25,936 nucleotides of DNA from a virus (taxonomy: Duplodnaviria; Heunggongvirae; Uroviricota; Caudoviricetes). Below the pieces are notes generated by a model. That model searched no databases. It was given only the letters and a program-made list of their open reading frames with translations, and was not told the origin of the DNA. The translations under genes and the position numbers were made by a program. The stretch spans positions 1-25,936 of IMG/VR virus record IMGVR_UViG_2778261085_000012, one strand, 5' to 3'. Below, in pieces: positions 16,453 through 24,912 of the stretch. Position 1 is the first letter of the stretch. Every line of letters begins with the position of its first letter.

Positions 16453-16764
16453 TTACTCAGGAAATAACGCCCGGATATTCCCAGCCATCTGGCTGGTTAT
16501 TTTAGCCACTGGTGCAGACTGTGCTTCAAACTTTTTTGAGCTGATTTGTGTCACAGGTAACATCTCATCATCAGCCCATGCGGCCAGTCGGTAAGCCTCT
16601 GCCGGATTCGTCTTCAGAAGTGCCAGCCCGGCCAGAAAAGCCACGCGTTGGCCGCTTTTGCGGGCTTCTGGTGTAAGGCTGTCCAGCCAGGCGCATGCTT
16701 CTCCTTCGTTCTTGACGGCAGCTGGCTTCAGATAGAAACTTATCCGTCTGGTTGGTGTCGTCAT
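16453..16764 (-). CDS. parR: ParR-like centromere-binding protein (plasmid R1 ParR/StbB family)
   Basis: 103 aa; RRISFYLKP...AWLDSLTPEARKSGQRVAFLAGLALLKTNP parallels the R1 ParR N-terminal region; located immediately downstream of the ParM-like gene. Confidence 0.65.
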   Translation of the reverse strand: MTTPTRRISFYLKPAAVKNEGEACAWLDSLTPEARKSGQRVAFLAGLALLKTNPAEAYRLAAWADDEMLPVTQISSKKFEAQSAPVAKITSQMAGNIRALFPE

Positions 16765-16768
16765 TGGT

Positions 16769-17728
16769 TTACTCCTTGTTCATTGCGTACAGCCCATTAA
16801 CCAGAGCAAACTGTGGCACCCCGTCCGCGATGAAAGTCGCATTAACTCCGCAGGCTTCGCGGATAGCGGGTGCCACAATCTCCGCTCCTCCACCGACAAC
16901 CATCACCCGCCCGTAACCCGAAAAACCCGCCAGCGCGCGGATCACGCGTTGTTTCAGTGTTTCCTCCTTTTCACGAATAACTGCCATCAGGCTGGCGTAA
17001 TGCGCGTCATTGTGGATGTGCTGGCGCAGCCAGGCTTCATCGTGGCGATGTTCGATAATGGTACTGGCGATGTGGTGACTGGTGCGCATACCGTTGGTGG
17101 CCATCACCGACAGCACGGCATCGGCCATCAGAGAAACGCCTACGTGTGGATCGCAAAACACCTGGCTGATACCTGCCAGTTGCCCCTGAACCTTTGCCAC
17201 ATCCAGCGTGGTTCCGCCCAAATCCACAATCAGCAGGGATTCAAACGGACTCATGCCAGCCAGTGCTTTAAAGCCAGCCGGAATGGATTCAGGCATAACC
17301 CGCACGTTACGGATAGTGAATGCCTCGCCGTTCTGGTACTCCACCGGGCGCATGACGTTCGCTTTTTTGCGGTTGATGTTGGCCATGTCCGGCTGTGCGT
17401 TTGTGTCGAAATACTCGCTCAGTGGCAGGGTGACAACCACATCCACTTCCTGTGGTGTGATACCTGATTTGACCAGCGCATGATGAATGGCAATCACATT
17501 CACATCGCTGTACTGGTATTGCGTGTCAGTTGTCTGAACAAAGCGATCGCTGACCGGATCAAAATCATAGCGCACGCCATCAATCATGTAGTTTGCGGGT
17601 TGCGTGCCACCGAACGGCGCAGACCATTCCGACTTGAAGCTGTTCGGGCTGATGGCGTTGCGACGTTCGCCGTTCTCAGTCCATGCCAGCTTGATGTTGG
17701 TGGAGCCGTCGTCGATACAAATTTTCAT
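16769..17728 (-). CDS. parM: ParM/StbA-like actin-family ATPase
   Basis: 319 aa; MKICIDDGSTNIKLAW..., YSDVNVIAIHHAL, MPESIPAG, LIVDLGGTTLD and VMVVGGGAE are collinear with plasmid R1 ParM. Confidence 0.85.
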   Translation of the reverse strand: MKICIDDGSTNIKLAWTENGERRNAISPNSFKSEWSAPFGGTQPANYMIDGVRYDFDPVSDRFVQTTDTQYQYSDVNVIAIHHALVKSGITPQEVDVVVTLPLSEYFDTNAQPDMANINRKKANVMRPVEYQNGEAFTIRNVRVMPESIPAGFKALAGMSPFESLLIVDLGGTTLDVAKVQGQLAGISQVFCDPHVGVSLMADAVLSVMATNGMRTSHHIASTIIEHRHDEAWLRQHIHNDAHYASLMAVIREKEETLKQRVIRALAGFSGYGRVMVVGGGAEIVAPAIREACGVNATFIADGVPQFALVNGLYAMNKE

Positions 17729-17870: not shown

Positions 17871-20627
17871 GTTTCCACTGGTCAGGCCACCCCGCAGCAG
17901 GTCTGCTTTGCGGCGGGCGCGTTCAGTGGTTTCACTGATTCTCAGTGCGTGCTCTGCGTCGCGGATGGCGCGCAGCATGTCAGAAAGCACGGTAACGGGT
18001 GTTTTCATGGTGTTCTGGTCTTGCTGAAGTGTGGATGCCAGGCGTGCGGCGGCTTCGGGGTCTGATGCCCCCAGCTGTTCCAGATAGCTGGCGACCGGGT
18101 TATGGCGGATCTCCGTGCTGCTTACGCCGTGATTACGGCTCAGGCGCTGCCAGAGCTGCGTGATTCGGCTGTCCGGTCGGGTATCTGGTTTGCGTACAAT
18201 TTCAAATCCCTGCGGTGCAATGATGCTGCCGTCAACGTACAGACTGCCGCCCCGTAACAGGTGCAGCATCTGTTGTTCACCGATATGCAGGCCGAGAGAT
18301 TCGGCAGACTCCCGCCATTCTTTAGCGAGTAACTCGTGGTTATCAGGCAAAGGTCGCGGCTGTTTGCGGCTCTGTGTCCAGTTCTGCATTTCATCGCTGC
18401 TGTTTTTTGCCTGTTTGTCACGAAGCGAACGCATCAGCGCTCGGCGTTCGTGCCGTTTCAGTGAGCGCATCCATTCATTTACTTCAACGCCGTCAGGAAG
18501 CTGCGGCCACGGTGCTGGCCGTTCTTCCGGCTGTTCTGTTCCGTTGTTGCTCGTTTCCTGTACACGGGGACAGTTATTGCCACGAGTCCAAGGGGCGGCA
18601 GGGCCGCCCTGAAGGTCAAAACCATTTTCGCGGGCGCTGTCTTCCGTTTCCGGTTTACGTCTTACCAGTTTCCAGTTATCCGGATGCGTGCATACACGGG
18701 AGGATTCCCCGATGAGTGGTGACCAGATCCCGTAAATCTGTACGCTCTGTTCGCCGTAATCATTCAGCTCATCTGCGAGGTCGTAGGCGGTGCGAATCAG
18801 GTAGTCTTTGCGTGGAACAAGTACGCCGCCCTGTTTTTCAATGTAGGTGGCAAAACACCCGGCATCGGCGGCAGCGAGTACCGCATCCATTGCGTCATCT
18901 TTCAGTCGTTGCGGGCCTTCCGGGTTGCGTGCCATCTGGCTGGCAAGGCGGCGCAGTTCACGCCACACCTGACGGGAGGGGATGCCAAAGAACTGGAACT
19001 GGCGGACCCGATGAAGGCGCGCCCAGCCGATGGCGCGCTCCACACTCTCGGCCATTGATTTTCCGGTTTCGTGGTCAACGCGTGGCTTGCCCGTTTTCGG
19101 GTCGATGCCATCCACGGCGCGGCTGTCCAGGTTCTTTCCGATGTAGGTCGCGATATAGCTGGTTGGTGTGCCTTTTGAGCCGTCGACATACTCCGCCTTA
19201 AAGCGCGGAGTAATATCATTGCCCAGCTCGTGGCGGTCTTCCTGAATGGCAATATCGCGGGTGATGGCCACGATGCTGTCGATTTCTTCCGGATGAGCAA
19301 AGACCATCATATGCCAGTGCACGGTGCCGTCATGGTGAGGCTCCACCGTGCGGATGCCATACCAGCGCAGACCGTCGCGGTTCAGTTTTTTGCGGACTGC
19401 CGCAAAAAACGTGTTAACCAGGTAATCGCTGGAGTCGCGCATGGTGGCCCCGTTCCATTTGGGATTCGGATTACCGTTCTCTGTTGTGGCGTGGTATTTT
19501 GACGGGCAGGTGACAGTCAGAAACACCGCTCTGTCGCCACGGGCTTCGGCCAGAAGTTCCAGCCCCTTCATGGTGGCCATCATTTCTGCCTTACGGTGAA
19601 CCGGGTTACTTACTCCCGCGTAATACACTGTCTCGAGATCAATCGTGAACCCGTCTTCGTTTTCCAGCATGAAACTTTTCAGGAAATCGCGTGTTTTCTC
19701 GCGCTGCGCGCGAAACTCGCTTAATGCGTCCTGACTCAGATAGGGCGATGTTTTTCTGGAAACCAGACAGGCGGCGCGGAGTTGTTCTTCCCGCCACTCG
19801 CAACGTAACAGCCACAGTTTGCGTTTCCACCATTCCGCACAGGTCAGGCGAAGGATTGCACCCGGCAGCAGCTCCGTGTCCGGTTCGTTCCTCCGGTCTT
19901 TGTCTGTTGTCAGTGCGTCATAATGTGGAGGCATGGCGTGCAGGTGTAACGCCATGCGGGCCAGCATCTGATACGCCTTCAGCGTTACATCCATGGTCAG
20001 CTCGCCATCGGTCGCGCCAAAGCCATCGCAGAGTTTTTCGAAAGTGCTGCTGAACATCGCCGCCGTCATGGTGGCCAGCGTCTGTATCTGGTGTTTGTTG
20101 AGCTGCGGCAGGTAAAGCAAATCATCCAGGCGTTCGCGTCCGGCAAGGGAGCGATAACCCGGTGTCAGCCAGCGGTGGTCGGTGCGGTCCAGACGTTCGA
20201 ATATTTTGCGCAGGGTTCCGCGTGCATAGCGTTCCGCCTGCCAGCTCTTTTTGCCTTTCCGGCGATCGGCTTCCTGTTTTTTGCGCAGGAAGGAGAGGTG
20301 GCGAATAAGCGGATCGCGCAGATAGGACGGCAGCAGGCGCAGCGAGGCCATGGCTTCATCCACCGCGCCGCGTGCCTGTTTTCTGGCGTCTCCTGCCAGT
20401 GTGATGGTTTTGTCCTGTTTTTCCTGTGCGTCCAGGTTTTTATTAATCAGGTTGCCCAGCGGCGTGGCGGAGAACGCCGCATCAGCCATTTCCTGGCGGC
20501 GCTCGTTCTCTACCCGGTAGGCATCCAGCCAGGAGGAAAGCGCGGATTTAGGAGCGGGGATCCCCGTTCCTTCACGCCCCACTGCGTGGCGCGGTTGTTG
20601 CCAGTCCCTGATGTACTCTGCCGTCAT
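17805..20627 (-). CDS. A: replication initiation endonuclease A (rolling-circle, P2 gpA-like)
   Basis: 940 aa; conserved core ...LTVTCPSKYH...WYGIRTVEPHHDGTVHWHMMVF...YIATYIGKNLD...; longer than P2 A (about 760 aa as remembered). Confidence 0.9.
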   Translation of the reverse strand: MTAEYIRDWQQPRHAVGREGTGIPAPKSALSSWLDAYRVENERRQEMADAAFSATPLGNLINKNLDAQEKQDKTITLAGDARKQARGAVDEAMASLRLLPSYLRDPLIRHLSFLRKKQEADRRKGKKSWQAERYARGTLRKIFERLDRTDHRWLTPGYRSLAGRERLDDLLYLPQLNKHQIQTLATMTAAMFSSTFEKLCDGFGATDGELTMDVTLKAYQMLARMALHLHAMPPHYDALTTDKDRRNEPDTELLPGAILRLTCAEWWKRKLWLLRCEWREEQLRAACLVSRKTSPYLSQDALSEFRAQREKTRDFLKSFMLENEDGFTIDLETVYYAGVSNPVHRKAEMMATMKGLELLAEARGDRAVFLTVTCPSKYHATTENGNPNPKWNGATMRDSSDYLVNTFFAAVRKKLNRDGLRWYGIRTVEPHHDGTVHWHMMVFAHPEEIDSIVAITRDIAIQEDRHELGNDITPRFKAEYVDGSKGTPTSYIATYIGKNLDSRAVDGIDPKTGKPRVDHETGKSMAESVERAIGWARLHRVRQFQFFGIPSRQVWRELRRLASQMARNPEGPQRLKDDAMDAVLAAADAGCFATYIEKQGGVLVPRKDYLIRTAYDLADELNDYGEQSVQIYGIWSPLIGESSRVCTHPDNWKLVRRKPETEDSARENGFDLQGGPAAPWTRGNNCPRVQETSNNGTEQPEERPAPWPQLPDGVEVNEWMRSLKRHERRALMRSLRDKQAKNSSDEMQNWTQSRKQPRPLPDNHELLAKEWRESAESLGLHIGEQQMLHLLRGGSLYVDGSIIAPQGFEIVRKPDTRPDSRITQLWQRLSRNHGVSSTEIRHNPVASYLEQLGASDPEAAARLASTLQQDQNTMKTPVTVLSDMLRAIRDAEHALRISETTERARRKADLLRGGLTSGNKKQTETGFTNPVNEQKTRRDI

Positions 20628-20633
20628 AGTGAT

Positions 20634-20999
20634 TTACTTCGTCATGCCATTCAGGGTGTCGCGGCAGACTGTAGCCAGCCGCTGAATTTCCAGCACGGTG
20701 TCTTCTGTGTCGGTATGGCGATGTGTGATGCGGATGCTGTCGGCAATCACATCGACGATTGCAGAGGATGGGCGCTGGTAAATGCCAATAACGGACGGGG
20801 TGCCACCTTCAATGCGGTAAAGCCTGTAATTTCCCTCGTGGCTGTCAATCATGTAGCGACCATCAATAACAATCTTTCCGTCAGCGAGCTGCGGTACAGG
20901 CAGGGATTTCAGGTACATGTCATAACGATCACGCACGCGAGCGGCAAGATCACGCTCTGTGTTGAGCAGGTATTCAAGAAAGTCGTTGGCGAGAATCAT
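20634..20999 (-). CDS. hypothetical early protein (121 aa), coupled to A
   Basis: Stop 7 nt upstream of the A start codon, same strand; no recognisable family. Confidence 0.5.
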   Translation of the reverse strand: MILANDFLEYLLNTERDLAARVRDRYDMYLKSLPVPQLADGKIVIDGRYMIDSHEGNYRLYRIEGGTPSVIGIYQRPSSAIVDVIADSIRITHRHTDTEDTVLEIQRLATVCRDTLNGMTK

Positions 21000-21071
21000 T
21001 GCGGCAATCCTCTTGTTACAGATGTGCGAAGGCCTCCCGCCGCAAGGTGCAGGAAAGGCCCGGAACAGGAA

Positions 21072-21302
21072 TTAATGGAGTTTGTTTTGCTGCTGGATGA
21101 GCTGTTGAAGCTCGTGCAGATCATCCGCCAGATAGCTGAAAACAGAGGCGGAATAAATGTTTGATAGTGCGTGGCTGCGCTCATGCAACATATTGATGTG
21201 CATGATTTGCGCGACGCGTGTTGCGCGAAAAAGTCTGCGGTTGATTTCGCTGCGGATGTGAATACGCTCAGCGCGGGCGCGCTGTTGCATGCGGTTTGCC
21301 AT
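21072..21302 (-). CDS. hypothetical basic protein (76 aa)
   Basis: ORF downstream of the structured intergenic region, same strand as A; GAGG about 9 nt upstream of the start; overlaps long spurious ORFs, so uncertain. Confidence 0.3.
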   Translation of the reverse strand: MANRMQQRARAERIHIRSEINRRLFRATRVAQIMHINMLHERSHALSNIYSASVFSYLADDLHELQQLIQQQNKLH

Positions 21303-21486
21303 GACGTGGCCTCGTGTATAGTAAGTTTTGAAAACTCACCATCCAGAGTTGAGAATCTCGGGGTGGCGAGACGTACGGGGTTCTCAACACCGGCTACACA
21401 CGATCCCGGCCCGACCGAAGTCGGCCCCGTACGCCCCGCCATAATTCTGACGCGAAAAAGACGTGGCAATACAGTACGCACAAAAA

Positions 21487-21502
21487 AACCGCTGGCGCGG
21501 TT
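21487..21502 (-). terminator. candidate intrinsic terminator (minus strand) inside the early operon
   Basis: On the minus strand: AACCGC gcca GCGGTT followed by T7; short 6-bp GC-rich stem. Confidence 0.35.
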
Positions 21503-21599
21503 GTGCGCGTGTGTAGTCAGCGGGTTGAGAATCCCGGCACCCGTTTTATGAGGTGCAGCGGAAATGTAACCCGACTCAACGAGCGCTGGCAAGCGGTTT

Positions 21600-21627
21600 T
21601 TGTGTTGCGTGCTGAAGTATGTATAAT
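21600..21627 (+). promoter_or_regulatory. sigma70-type promoter for the antisense cargo gene
   Basis: TTGTGT - 16 nt - TATAAT, with TG immediately upstream of the -10; 60 nt upstream of the ATG at 21689. Confidence 0.55.
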
Positions 21628-21688
21628 CGCGGCGCAAAAATGGAATGCGCCGAAGGATAGCGGCGTTTATTAACAATGGAGGTTGTTT

Positions 21689-22156
21689 ATGCCTGTTGCT
21701 ATGGAGCAAGCAGACAAGAAGATTTTTTTCCATCTGTGGTACAGCTACTGGCTGGAAGAGATGGTTTTCATACTCAACAACAAGGCCGCTTTTGTGCTGC
21801 GCTCTGGAGCCTTGATTGCTGCGGTGTTGTCTTTTCTTCTGATTGAGTTCCCTGCCCTGATGAGTCTTTGCGGACTGGTGTTTTTTGGTTTTTCCTGGTT
21901 TTGCAGCAAGTGTGAATTCGTCGCCGAACTGGCGTGCTGGCAGAAACAGAGCTATCTGCGTCTGATTACGCAAAGGGATTTTATGACCACTGAACGCCTC
22001 ACTGAGCGCATTCTGCATCTGGAAGAAACGAACAGCGCATACATGAAAGCGATTGTCAGGCCCGCAAAAAACAAAGCGAGTGCATCTGTTGGGTTGTCTG
22101 CCAGCGAACATTTGCGTTACTCCGAAAGGTTAATTTGCTGGTTGTGCAGTTTCTGA
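21689..22156 (+). CDS. predicted membrane protein (155 aa) encoded antisense within the early operon (moron)
   Basis: Strong RBS GGAGG with 6-nt spacer; own promoter; hydrophobic stretch AFVLRSGALIAAVLSFLLIEFPALMSLCGLVFFGFSWF (about 2 TM helices); opposite orientation to all flanking early genes. Confidence 0.65.
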   Translation: MPVAMEQADKKIFFHLWYSYWLEEMVFILNNKAAFVLRSGALIAAVLSFLLIEFPALMSLCGLVFFGFSWFCSKCEFVAELACWQKQSYLRLITQRDFMTTERLTERILHLEETNSAYMKAIVRPAKNKASASVGLSASEHLRYSERLICWLCSF

Positions 22157-22221
22157 ACTGTGAAGAGCCTGTTGGCATCTCGGAAATGATGATGGATGTA
22201 ATTCCTGGTGGTTGATGGTGC

Positions 22222-22488
22222 TCATGCTCTGGCTTCCTTCAGTAGCTGGTTAAACATGTGAGTAAGTGGATTGCTACACCCGAACGGCATCGGGTTTACG
22301 TGGTAAGAAGCCTGGCCTCCTGTTTTGCGAGCGCGACCACCTGTGCTGCGGTTTGTTCTGATGACTAAGCCGCCGCGCCAAAGTTGGCGTAACTCAGCAT
22401 TAATGGCTGTGGTTGGAGTATTCAGTGCTGCGGCGATCTCTCCGCCGCTACACCCCGGATGAGTAGCGATGTAGTCCAGAATGGTCAT
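22222..22488 (-). CDS. winged-helix DNA-binding early protein (FaeA-like)
   Basis: 88 aa; TILDYIATHPGCSGGEIAAALNTPTTAINAELRQLWRGGLV resembles FaeA/PapI-like wHTH proteins. Confidence 0.55.
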   Translation of the reverse strand: MTILDYIATHPGCSGGEIAAALNTPTTAINAELRQLWRGGLVIRTNRSTGGRARKTGGQASYHVNPMPFGCSNPLTHMFNQLLKEARA

Positions 22489-24230: not shown

Positions 24231-24509
24231 TTATTTTGTCATCTGCACGTATTTCTCTGCGTTTCTGATGGTTTTCAGGAAAATTGCGAAGAGATTTACT
24301 GTACGTTTTGAGTTTTTTTCTTCTTGGTTGATGGGAAGGGCTGCTCTGTCAGCCTGCCTTTTCACTGCATTAACAGTTTGATTGGTACGCTTCGCGTAAT
24401 CTTTCAGGCTTTCTTCGAGTACCGGTAATCCATGCTCATCGCGGTATGGGTAGAACGCCGCCAAACGCTCAAAATCCGCTTGCTCGTATGTGTTCAAGAG
24501 CTTTGTCAT
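24231..24509 (-). CDS. cox: Cox-like early regulator/excisionase (first gene of the early operon)
   Basis: 92 aa; position equals P2 cox; C-terminal half YAKRTNQTVNAVKRQADRAALPI fits the Cox-type HTH pattern (P2 Cox FAKLIGKSTGAVRRMIDKGKLPV). Confidence 0.55.
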   Translation of the reverse strand: MTKLLNTYEQADFERLAAFYPYRDEHGLPVLEESLKDYAKRTNQTVNAVKRQADRAALPINQEEKNSKRTVNLFAIFLKTIRNAEKYVQMTK

Positions 24510-24600
24510 GATGTGATAACCTGTTCAGTCTGTGGTTATTTGTTGCTAAAAGTCGTCTCTAGGCGACTTTTAGGGTTAATTTAGTCGTCTGGAGACCACC
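24510..24600. promoter_or_regulatory. immunity switch region with divergent promoters and operator repeats
   Basis: Direct repeats AGTCGTCT (about 24551 and 24583) plus inverted repeat AAAAGTCG...CGACTTTT between the divergent cox-like and C genes; RBS GGAG before the C start. Confidence 0.5.
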
Positions 24601-24912
24601 ATGTCAAGTGGGTACGAAAAAAAACTGAAAGAGATACGGAAAAGTGAAGGGTTAACTCAAGCTGAGTTTGCAGATGTTACTGGGATAAATCTCGGAACTA
24701 TAAAGAATTATGAGAGCGGTAAAAGAGAGGTTGGTTTAAGCGTTGTTGATCGCGTAATTAATTCTAAGGATTTCGAAAAATACACTATATGGCTTATGAC
24801 GGGAAAAACAAATGAGGCTGCTGGGCAGATCAGTCCCTCTCTCTCCCCTGATGGGCCAGAAAACACATCGTCTTTTCAAAAATCCCGCAAGACTGGTACA
24901 CAGCCCGGCTAA
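24601..24912 (+). CDS. C: immunity repressor, P2 C-type (HTH)
   Basis: 103 aa; LKEIRKSEGLTQAEFADVTGINLGTIKNYESGKR...KYTIWLMTGK parallels P2 C (VLMRKSEYLSRQQLADLTGVPYGTLSYYESG...KYTLWFMT). Confidence 0.85.
   Translation: MSSGYEKKLKEIRKSEGLTQAEFADVTGINLGTIKNYESGKREVGLSVVDRVINSKDFEKYTIWLMTGKTNEAAGQISPSLSPDGPENTSSFQKSRKTGTQPG

Follow-up and report, generated by a model that had tools for sequence, protein, structure and literature searches.

A probable IsrK-C4-type antisense-RNA immunity cassette upstream of a derepression gene in a P88-like Escherichia coli prophage

The stretch of DNA analysed here, 25,936 nucleotides long and called the window below, is a P88-like Escherichia coli prophage (genus Xuanwuvirus, Peduoviridae, P2 family). 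Its region 20600-22300 is 94-95% identical to P88, P88_4B11, vB_EcoM-569R5 and their relatives over the aligned 59-65%. E. coli strain 100181 holds an identical copy of the element region and O145 and O103:H2 strains hold near-identical ones, and a P88-like copy of the module was present in 1181 of 5426 complete E. coli genomes, about one fifth. On the plus strand, an HTH repressor (phage C repressor) is encoded at 24601-24912, while the early genes occupy the minus strand. These include a Cox-like gene (24509 to 24231) and, between it and 22222, several small ORFs, one of them of the MarR-type wHTH. A plus-strand ORF of 155 aa (21689-22156) adjoins the element region. From the element onwards, the minus-strand order is a 76-aa ORF (ORF76, 21302 to 21072), orf121 (20999 to 20634; 121 aa, phrog_3237, function unknown), the replication endonuclease gpA (20627 to 17805; Phage_GPA, E = 1e-130) and, past gpA, ParM/partition genes, and this downstream order is the same in all P88-like phages. 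Neither the 121-aa ORF nor the 155-aa ORF had a match in PADLOC, NCBIfam and Pfam searches, and a scan of the window for tRNA and tmRNA genes found none. At the element, RefSeq leaves a gap of 386 bp without annotation, and in several GenBank phage records the equivalent stretch is mis-annotated as a 205-aa 'transcriptional regulator' or as an 'ash family protein'.

The first-pass annotation of this DNA had described a structured element with GTTGAGAAYC repeats between the Cox-proximal and the replication genes. The repeats are real, with exactly three copies in the 25.9-kb window, all within 21348-21533: two lie on the plus strand (21348 and 21524) and one is inverted (21379-21388). Shuffled sequences were expected to hold 0.07 copies, and none of 100 shuffles reached three. 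A repeat search also recovered the nested inverted repeat (21343-21360 and 21376-21393), its distant third copy and a GC-rich stem (21364-21380 and 21425-21441), all of which the first-pass annotation had noticed. The same search region holds a second trio, CTAYACACG/CGTGTGTAG, at 21313-21321, at 21394-21402 (as CGTGTGTAG) and at 21508-21516, three copies against 0.31 expected. This second trio was missed in the first-pass annotation, as were the predicted promoter of the element itself and the epsilon-like derepression gene as the first regulated gene. The richness in secondary structure claimed for the stretch was borne out as well; the 267-nt RNA from 21556 to 21290 on the minus strand, which corresponds to a read-through transcript, folds with -114.9 kcal/mol (z = -4.9 against shuffles), and none of 200 dinucleotide shuffles folded as well.

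To place this structure, the whole window was scanned against Rfam using the curated gathering scores of 50 for isrK (RF01394) and 45 for C4 (RF01695). An IsrK-type small RNA was found from 21556 to 21482 with 61.8 bits, covering model positions 1-77 of 77, and a C4 antisense RNA from 21446 to 21359 with 76.8 bits, covering positions 1-87 of 87. Both matches are on the minus strand only and lie 35 nt apart, and the Rfam scan that the first-pass annotation had suggested thus settled its 'structured RNA' option in favour of two strand-specific RNA families. The IsrK part consists of hairpin 1, hairpin 2, a linker and an intrinsic terminator at its end, whereas the C4 part consists of a 17-bp closing stem and two internal hairpins, which are the GC-rich stems noted earlier. 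The minimum free energy (MFE) fold of the single C4 sequence is the structure of the model (-48.5 kcal/mol). The covariance check, likewise suggested beforehand, gave compensatory, double-sided changes at 15 of the 27 consensus pairs of C4 (11 homologues including P1 and P4) and at 7 of the 16 consensus pairs of isrK (10 diverse homologues). The helices contain many G-U pairs, each of which would turn into an A-C mismatch if the opposite strand were transcribed, so the structure can be assigned to the RNA of the minus strand. The C4 match has the conserved 5' flank AUUAUGG and the 3' end CCACC, and mature C4 is predicted at about 21440 to 21362 by register with the annotated P1 c4.

Tandem isrK and C4 matches were present in all 12 related phage loci fetched and also in P4 and P1. 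In silico, the window shows what is expected of the C4 and isrK families, save a match to the sister model c4-a1b1 (RF03163), which, unlike isrK, had no match in the window at E<=10. The matches of the two models overlap in both P4 and P1, where they cover one and the same element; isrK and c4-a1b1 are therefore two descriptions of one leader, and the miss in the window is best attributed to model bias.

A hairpin followed by T7 on the minus strand had been proposed as an intrinsic terminator and, by extension, as an attenuator splitting the early operon. The terminator half of this proposal held, as a terminator scan placed the hairpin from 21502 to 21482 on the minus strand (6-bp stem AACCGC/GCGGUU, loop GCCA, U7, -9.0 kcal/mol). 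A free-standing attenuator is improbable, as the hairpin is the 3' end of IsrK and forms part of the isrK covariance model. Upstream, a sigma-70 promoter denoted as PisrK is predicted on the minus strand within 21564..21592, with the -35 element TTGCCA (21592-21587) and the -10 element TACATT/TTACAT (21569-21563). The promoter scan gave the spacing TTGCCA-N18-TACATT and placed +1 at about 21556; the -10 element ends 6 nt before the first isrK base, and an A-tract (21601-21597) lies just upstream of the promoter. When the P88-like, Stx/PA2-like and cdtI-like groups were compared by eye, the -35/-10 pairs differed in sequence and were located in the same register. A dedicated promoter for isrK is supported because three divergent homologue groups keep this register. 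PisrK and the IsrK terminator are nevertheless predictions from consensus matches. We searched PisrK for a C-repressor operator and found no 8-mer in common with the C/Cox (Pc/Pe) operator region 24490-24620. A further candidate promoter in the IsrK-C4 spacer (TTGCCA-17-AATTAT, 21469 to 21441) was rejected, as its -35 element is TCGCCA in most relatives and its start would fall within the C4 stem. A 17-nt sequence upstream (21605 to 21589) is complementary to the 3' arm of the terminator and the U-tract, not to the 5' arm.

A simple intrinsic terminator or attenuator dividing the early operon, with the flanking hairpins as alternative structures in cis and no RNA acting in trans, would accommodate the terminator-like hairpin with its U7 and the very stable cis fold of the read-through RNA. 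We consider it quite improbable, as the full-length isrK match has the terminator as its final helix and is followed by a second, separate match to the whole of C4, and as every homologue group has a promoter-like site just upstream. Furthermore, the co-variation described below links three places and reaches the ribosome-binding site past C4, which a simple attenuator does not need. The predicted alternative folds use the middle of IsrK and the C4 boxes, not the arms of the terminator, and the same pairing of the IsrK middle with the C4 boxes is present in the MFE fold of the read-through RNA.

The two repeat trios correspond to six short boxes in the minus-strand RNA. In IsrK, box a1 (UUCUCAAC, 21531 to 21524) occupies the loop of hairpin 2, where a1 is also placed by the P1 record and by the c4-a1b1 model alignments, and complements a' of C4, and box b1 (CUACACACG, 21516 to 21508) lies in the linker and complements b' of C4. 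In C4, box b' (CGUGUGUAG, 21402 to 21394) lies in the 12-nt loop of the second hairpin, and box a' (GUUGAGAA, 21388 to 21381) lies in a single-stranded 3' bulge. In the mRNA leader, target box a2 (UUCUCAAC, 21355 to 21348) is located a few nt past the closing stem of C4, and target box b2 (CUAUACACG, 21321 to 21313) pairs with b' with one G-U. The second trio, which reads CUAYACACG/CGUGUGUAG as RNA, therefore represents b1, b' and b2. The C4 boxes b' and a' each have two complements, one set (a1/b1) within IsrK and the other (a2/b2) in the leader that precedes the following gene. Box b2 is fused to the Shine-Dalgarno sequence GAGG (21313-21310), 7 nt before the ATG of ORF76 at 21302, and in all homologues b2 is directly followed by (A/G)GG and then by ATG 7-12 nt further on. 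Between a2 and b2, a leader hairpin is predicted (21319..21341, minus strand) whose 3' arm runs into b2; P88-like loci conserve its sequence, GGTGAGTTTTC-AAAACTTAC, and a stretch able to form a comparable hairpin was seen by eye in the lambdoid, P1 and P4 homologues.

The energies of the isolated box duplexes were compared for the two partners of b', with means of -11.9 kcal/mol for b':b1 and -13.9 kcal/mol for b':b2. The b2 duplex is favoured on average because the pairing extends into the Shine-Dalgarno sequence. The idea that IsrK is a decoy of higher affinity than the mRNA target is not supported by these energies. RNAcofold of C4 with the leader predicted no intermolecular pairs; loop-loop contacts lie beyond its model.

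To see how the boxes vary, we compared 84 sequences: the window, three records of P88-like phages and 80 IMG/VR contigs on which the 76-aa protein is encoded. Among them, the a-box has at least 6 alleles and the b-box at least 12, which occur in 16 combinations, and the boxes were always changed in concert. Phages that are otherwise about 84-90% identical across the module differ in their boxes, and do so at all three places together. P88, for example, has the a-box UUUCCAC/GUGGAAA and the b-box CAACUACAG/CUGUAGUUG, 569R5 has UUCGCAG and CUACACAAG, and Citrobacter phiSM has UUGGAAC and CAACCAAAG. Concerted change of the boxes was also seen in the lambdoid homologues, P1 and P4. In an alignment of 16 distinct P88-like sequences, which is almost invariant outside the boxes, 93.4% of the C4-target positions were paired, compared with 66.4% in shuffles and 34-48% in slid controls. 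Double-sided changes between C4 and its target numbered 64, compared with 18 in shuffles, and affected 10 of 17 pairs. Between IsrK and C4, 95.2% were paired (67.8% in shuffles), and the b1-b' helix was paired to 100%. Several b-alleles are common to different a-alleles, and the two-box code is not only highly polymorphic but also appears to reassort, in spite of the interleaved order of the six boxes (a1, b1, b', a', a2, b2).

Judged from these alignments, the boxes vary in the manner typical of sequences that determine the specificity of RNA-RNA pairing, as is the case between P1 and P7, and not in the manner of protein-binding repeats. The first-pass annotation had also offered a binding array for a regulator, and this suggestion was wrong: the repeats are boxes for pairing between RNAs, and they co-vary at all three sites. 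While three GTTGAGAAYC copies within 190 bp, one of them inverted, might recall operators or iterons for a DNA-binding regulator, such a role is scarcely credible. In the strand-specific RNAs, the copies fall in a loop, a bulge and a leader. The inverted copy changes with the others, always as their complement, and several of the pairs are tolerated G-U wobbles, which in DNA would amount to mismatched repeats. Moreover, the unrelated second trio behaves in the same way, and the copies, like PisrK, have no 8-mer in common with the C/Cox operator region.

The gene that follows the leader, ORF76, appears to encode a derepression (anti-repressor) protein that is a distant homologue of P4 epsilon. 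It matched the Pfam family PF25738 (Derepression) with 29.1 bits, just over the cutoff of 27, and showed 30% identity to P4 epsilon over 50 aa (E = 4e-7). Across 34 distinct alleles, 53% of the codon differences in the ORF76 frame were synonymous, compared with 14% and 21% in the other frames. By gene content, ORF76 would be the first gene under C4 control; orf121 and gpA are probably in the same transcription unit and may be controlled by the module too. A gating of the downstream replication genes by the element is plausible by analogy with P4 and P1.

The first-pass annotation had stated that the stretch has no convincing ORF on the minus strand. Strictly, a frame of 371 codons (22111 to 20996) is open across both RNAs and ORF76, and it is open in all P88-like sequences examined; what stood of the statement is that this frame carries no coding signature. 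Its codon differences were synonymous to 17% across C4 and the leader and to 14% across ORF76, without synonymous bias, and resampling showed that an open frame across ORF76 is not unexpected in a sequence that has to encode the ORF76 protein (P = 0.13). The Pfam family Phage_ASH (PF10554) matched its translation with 22.6 bits, below the cutoff of 26, and reached 26.5 bits in P88_4B11. The same family matches the obsolete 'cI' CDS of P4 and, exactly over isrK-C4, the N-terminal extensions that annotators added to the Rha anti-repressors of cdtI and 1720a-02. Because the Phage_ASH matches overlie isrK-C4 and the frame lacks synonymous bias, the 'Ash' reading appears to be translated RNA.

The short ORF orf45 of Gifsy-1, with its AUG at the 5' border of the C4-like segment, is translated, which matters for coupling (PMC4825925), and the equivalent AUG is conserved in the window at 21443. 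Translation from this AUG through C4 would terminate in the ATGA where orf121 begins, and could link the expression of orf121 and gpA to the unfolding of C4. An 'Ash' family protein encoded by the long frame or by the 148-codon ORF from AUG 21443, with the repeats being incidental, would agree with such translation of the Gifsy-1 ORF (PMC4825925), with the frame staying open throughout and with the annotation of 205-aa CDSs in several GenBank records, one of them 'similar to ash family protein'. We nonetheless regard it as very improbable, considering that the score in the window is under the Pfam cutoff, that synonymous differences of 14-17% contrast with the 53% of the ORF76 frame, that openness across ORF76 is not unusual, and that the family itself looks like translated RNA in P4 and in the Rha extensions. 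The variation is, furthermore, concentrated in boxes that are complementary to each other.

Taken all together, we interpret the element as an immunity cassette built from IsrK and the C4 antisense RNA, of the kind known from P1 (immI), P4 (seqA-CI-seqC) and Gifsy-1 (isrK), located in a P88-like prophage, and assign this reading a probability of roughly 0.85. The mechanism proposed below follows characterised homologues in its steps, and it is set on the anatomy, complementarity, co-variation, b2 position and family membership observed here. Transcription from PisrK would mostly end at the IsrK terminator and yield an RNA of about 75 nt, whereas read-through transcripts would carry C4, which would then be excised. 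RNase P carries out this excision in P1 and P4; in the C4 family, its cleavage at the 5' side yields a stable RNA of about 77 nt that represses in trans and confers superinfection immunity. For P1 and P7, excision by RNase P and Rho-dependent polarity are reported from the Schuster and Hartmann laboratories. The excised C4 of the window would pair in trans with a2 and b2 and block ribosome binding at the derepression gene. The loss of translation would probably lead to Rho-dependent polarity on orf121 and gpA, which for gpA is pure analogy. This would keep the anti-repressor and replication functions switched off both in the lysogen and in superinfecting phages with matching box alleles. IsrK may act as a target mimic; by pairing with C4, either in cis in the silent read-through fold or in trans, it would regulate the pool of free C4.

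These steps have precedents in each of the characterised systems. The name 'IsrK-C4 immunity system' is already in use, with IsrK equated to seqA and C4 to CI, for P4-like and lambdoid prophages, P1, P7 and N15 (PMC3632133), and IsrK has been called a structural homologue of P4 seqA (PMC4825925). In Gifsy-1, transcripts from PisrK stop at the terminator or read through, and the read-through RNA is silent as the middle of IsrK pairs with a downstream segment; this 'structure A' was shown experimentally to be translationally silent (PMC4825925). The short IsrK activates translation of the anti-repressor anrP and prophage induction in trans (PMC4825925), and IsrK in excess turns the anti-repressor on. 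Experiments on the promoter, the short and read-through isoforms, Hfq binding and trans-activation of an isrK element exist for Gifsy-1 only (PMC4825925). In P4, the CI RNA is processed from the leader and pairs with seqA and seqC, which leads to premature termination before the replication genes (PMC4825925, PMC3632133). In P1, according to the annotation of its GenBank record, C4 on a2/b2 blocks translation of icd and thereby the expression of ant. The role given to IsrK/seqA differs in this literature, being that of an activator or decoy in Gifsy-1 and that of a co-target needed for immunity in P4.

A variant closer to P4 deserves weight here, in which C4 is mainly a transcription-termination factor and IsrK is a co-target required for immunity instead of an anti-C4 activator, such that transcripts would end ahead of the replication genes only when C4 pairs with both the upstream (IsrK/seqA) and the downstream boxes. 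The isrK and C4 regions of the window match the same Rfam models as P4 seqA and CI, and the order of RNA module, epsilon-like gene, small ORF and replication initiator resembles the immunity-replication operon of P4. Lysogeny reportedly cannot be established without P4 seqA, and in Salmonella Typhi, TraDIS marked the IsrK-like elements in P4-like prophages as required (PMC3632133). On the other hand, the closest experimentally dissected isrK is that of Gifsy-1, where the short RNA activates anti-repressor translation (PMC4825925), and b2 overlaps the Shine-Dalgarno sequence as in P1, which points first to translational control. We therefore hold the P4-style variant to be possible but rather unlikely. 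Termination and translational control are not mutually exclusive.

Within the reading as an IsrK-C4 cassette, the layout agrees with that of P1, whose GenBank record lists the promoter P1c4, a1, b1, c4, a2, b2, icd and ant, ordered and spaced as in the window. In both, a1 sits in a hairpin loop, b1 in a linker, a terminator-like hairpin follows, b' occupies a loop of C4 and a' a bulge of C4; c4 is immediately followed by a2, and b2 runs into the Shine-Dalgarno sequence of the first ORF, which is icd in P1. P1 and P7 also resemble the window in that the specificity resides in a few bases of two boxes, that C4 belongs to the same Rfam family and that an anti-repressor function follows. They differ in several respects. 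The P1 leader scores better with c4-a1b1 than with isrK, whereas the reverse is true for the window. The first gene encodes the 76-aa epsilon-like protein in the window and icd, followed by ant, in P1, and the operon of the window continues into gpA. Unlike in P1, no equivalent of a C1-type operator was found at the promoter by the 8-mer comparison, and the carrier belongs to the P2 family and is not P1-like.

In P4, seqA matches isrK (60.8 bits) and CI matches C4 (74.9 bits), the layout of the boxes is the same as in the window, and b2 is fused to a GGAGG Shine-Dalgarno sequence. Both cassettes lie upstream of an epsilon-type derepression gene and a replication initiator. While the two RNAs are about 107 nt apart in P4, they are separated by 35 nt in the window; the epsilon-type gene comes second after the cassette in P4 but first in the window, and the replication protein is the alpha primase-helicase in P4 and gpA in the window. 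The box sequences of the two differ, so that no cross-immunity is predicted. P4 is a satellite, whereas the carrier in the window is a complete P2-like phage of the helper type.

The Salmonella prophage Gifsy-1, with isrK-orf45(STnc1160)-anrP, is the founding member of the Rfam isrK family. It makes a short terminated IsrK and a read-through mRNA from one promoter, with an anti-repressor being regulated, and its silent fold, in which the middle of IsrK pairs with the C4-like segment, has its like in the predicted MFE fold of the read-through RNA in the window (PMC4825925). Gifsy-1 is lambdoid, however, and its anrP is translated by coupling to orf45 (PMC4825925). In the window, the frame equivalent to orf45 has no stop before ORF76, and ORF76 has a Shine-Dalgarno sequence of its own that is fused to b2. 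The AntQ output of Gifsy-1 has no counterpart in the window. Lambdoid and Stx phages (cdtI, 1720a-02, Stx2a phages and PA2) likewise have tandem isrK and C4 matches above the thresholds and concerted variation of the boxes. Their modules precede Rha-family anti-repressors in the PR operon, unlike that of the window, and show a nucleotide identity to the window of only about 66-71%.

The IsrK-C4 system is thus known from P1/P7, P4, Gifsy-1 and lambdoid phages, and the window is a new, hitherto unannotated case in a P2-family prophage. In the literature searched, we found no description of the module in P88/Xuanwuvirus phages. Apart from an unusually rich set of specificity variants, the cassette is an ordinary one, and the current view of the mechanism, as worked out in P1/P7, P4 and Gifsy-1, is unchanged by it. 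The cassette does explain the stretch that is left blank in RefSeq and mis-annotated in several GenBank phage records, and it identifies the probable control of an anti-repressor, and perhaps of replication genes, in a very common type of E. coli prophage. The concerted variation of the boxes at three sites also provides a clean natural data set on how the specificities of RNA-based immunity diversify.

More tentatively, and with slightly less than even odds, we suggest that P88-like prophages may run a second, RNA-based layer of immunity beside the C/Cox switch. The cassette would gate the epsilon-like anti-repressor and gpA, and its hypervariable, reassorting two-box code, with the 16 allele combinations seen in phages that are otherwise about 90% identical, would define dozens of heteroimmune groups, possibly with cross-talk to P4-like satellites. 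It is of mild interest in this regard that the carrier is a P2-type phage which also has a C/Cox switch, and that its operon follows a P4-like logic, with the cassette placed before an epsilon homologue and gpA.

The Pfam family Phage_ASH (PF10554) matches the window translation at 21293-21568 (-) with 22.6 bits, and also matches the obsolete P4 'cI' CDS with 59.7 bits. Outside the window, the match regions are in the comparison loci L013 (8168-8584 (-)), L006 (1641-2789) and L004 (1941-2804), and those of Rha anti-repressors lie within N-terminal extensions added by annotation. These matches are the conceptual translation of the isrK-C4 module, in which the IsrK small RNA is followed by the C4 antisense RNA. 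What Phage_ASH models appears to be a translated non-coding RNA, and the family drives the mis-annotations 'ash family protein' and 205-aa 'transcriptional regulator'.

A 371-codon open reading frame (20996-22111 (-)) runs antisense to a plus-strand ORF and continues without a stop through the promoter, isrK, C4 and the entire epsilon-like derepression gene, ORF76. Its 3' end, ATGA, overlaps the start of the following gene, orf121. Read from the conserved AUG at 21443, the frame contains no stop in any P88-like allele examined, and is possibly a translated leader like the short orf45 of Gifsy-1. Synonymous-site bias was absent from this frame among the P88-like alleles, and the lack of stops is possibly due to chance.

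The pairing boxes of the module were compared across 84 P88-like sequences, comprising 80 IMG/VR loci (L015-L094), the window and three phage records. Among them are 16 combinations of a- and b-box alleles, in which the same b-allele is found with different a-alleles. The order of the six boxes in the DNA is interleaved (a1, b1, b', a', a2, b2), so that a- and b-alleles are not reassorted by simple single crossovers. This implies gene conversion, several exchanges or convergent change that happened repeatedly. In one P88-like contig (L081, IMGVR_UViG_2582580934_000004, 270-310), a 17-nt insertion in C4 creates two tandem b' loops, one with the specificity CUACACAAG of the contig's own b1/b2 and the other with AGAGCAAAG, the allele of the commonest group. 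This RNA may be a dual-specificity C4, or its double loop may be an assembly chimera.

The isrK promoter PisrK and isrK itself are flanked by a 17-nt inverted repeat (21480-21496 and 21589-21605, 88% complementary), which is kept in P88-like phages and missing from the lambdoid, P4 and P1 homologues. The arm lying upstream, whose minus-strand sequence is ACACAAAAACCGCTTGC, overlaps the PisrK -35 and a UP-element-like A-tract, and is complementary to the 3' arm and U-tract of the IsrK terminator, with which it could pair in transcripts coming from upstream. In the IsrK-C4 spacer, TTGCCA-17-AATTAT (21441-21469 (-)) resembles a promoter whose -10 overlaps the conserved C4 5' flank AAUUAUGG. However, it is probably not a promoter, because the -35 is not conserved, being TCGCCA in relatives.

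Upstream of PisrK, a 155-aa ORF (21689-22156 (+), phrog_6315) is placed between the early operon and the promoter in the opposite orientation, and its insertion cuts the isrK-C4 module and the replication endonuclease gene gpA off from Pe-driven transcription. As P88 and relatives carry different cargo there, the site looks like a moron hot-spot. Searches of the ORF against Pfam, NCBIfam and PADLOC gave no match; its N-terminal half is hydrophobic, as judged by eye, and a TATAAT lies nearby at 21627-21632.

Elsewhere, a full-length Rfam match to IS009 (RF02111; 693-891 (-), 184.9 bits versus a gathering score of 117) is located in the late/tail-fibre region. Directly downstream of gpA are genes for ParM (StbA_N and ParM C-terminal domain) and a small partition protein (16453-17728 (-)), plasmid-type segregation genes within a P2-family prophage; P88 likewise has these genes.
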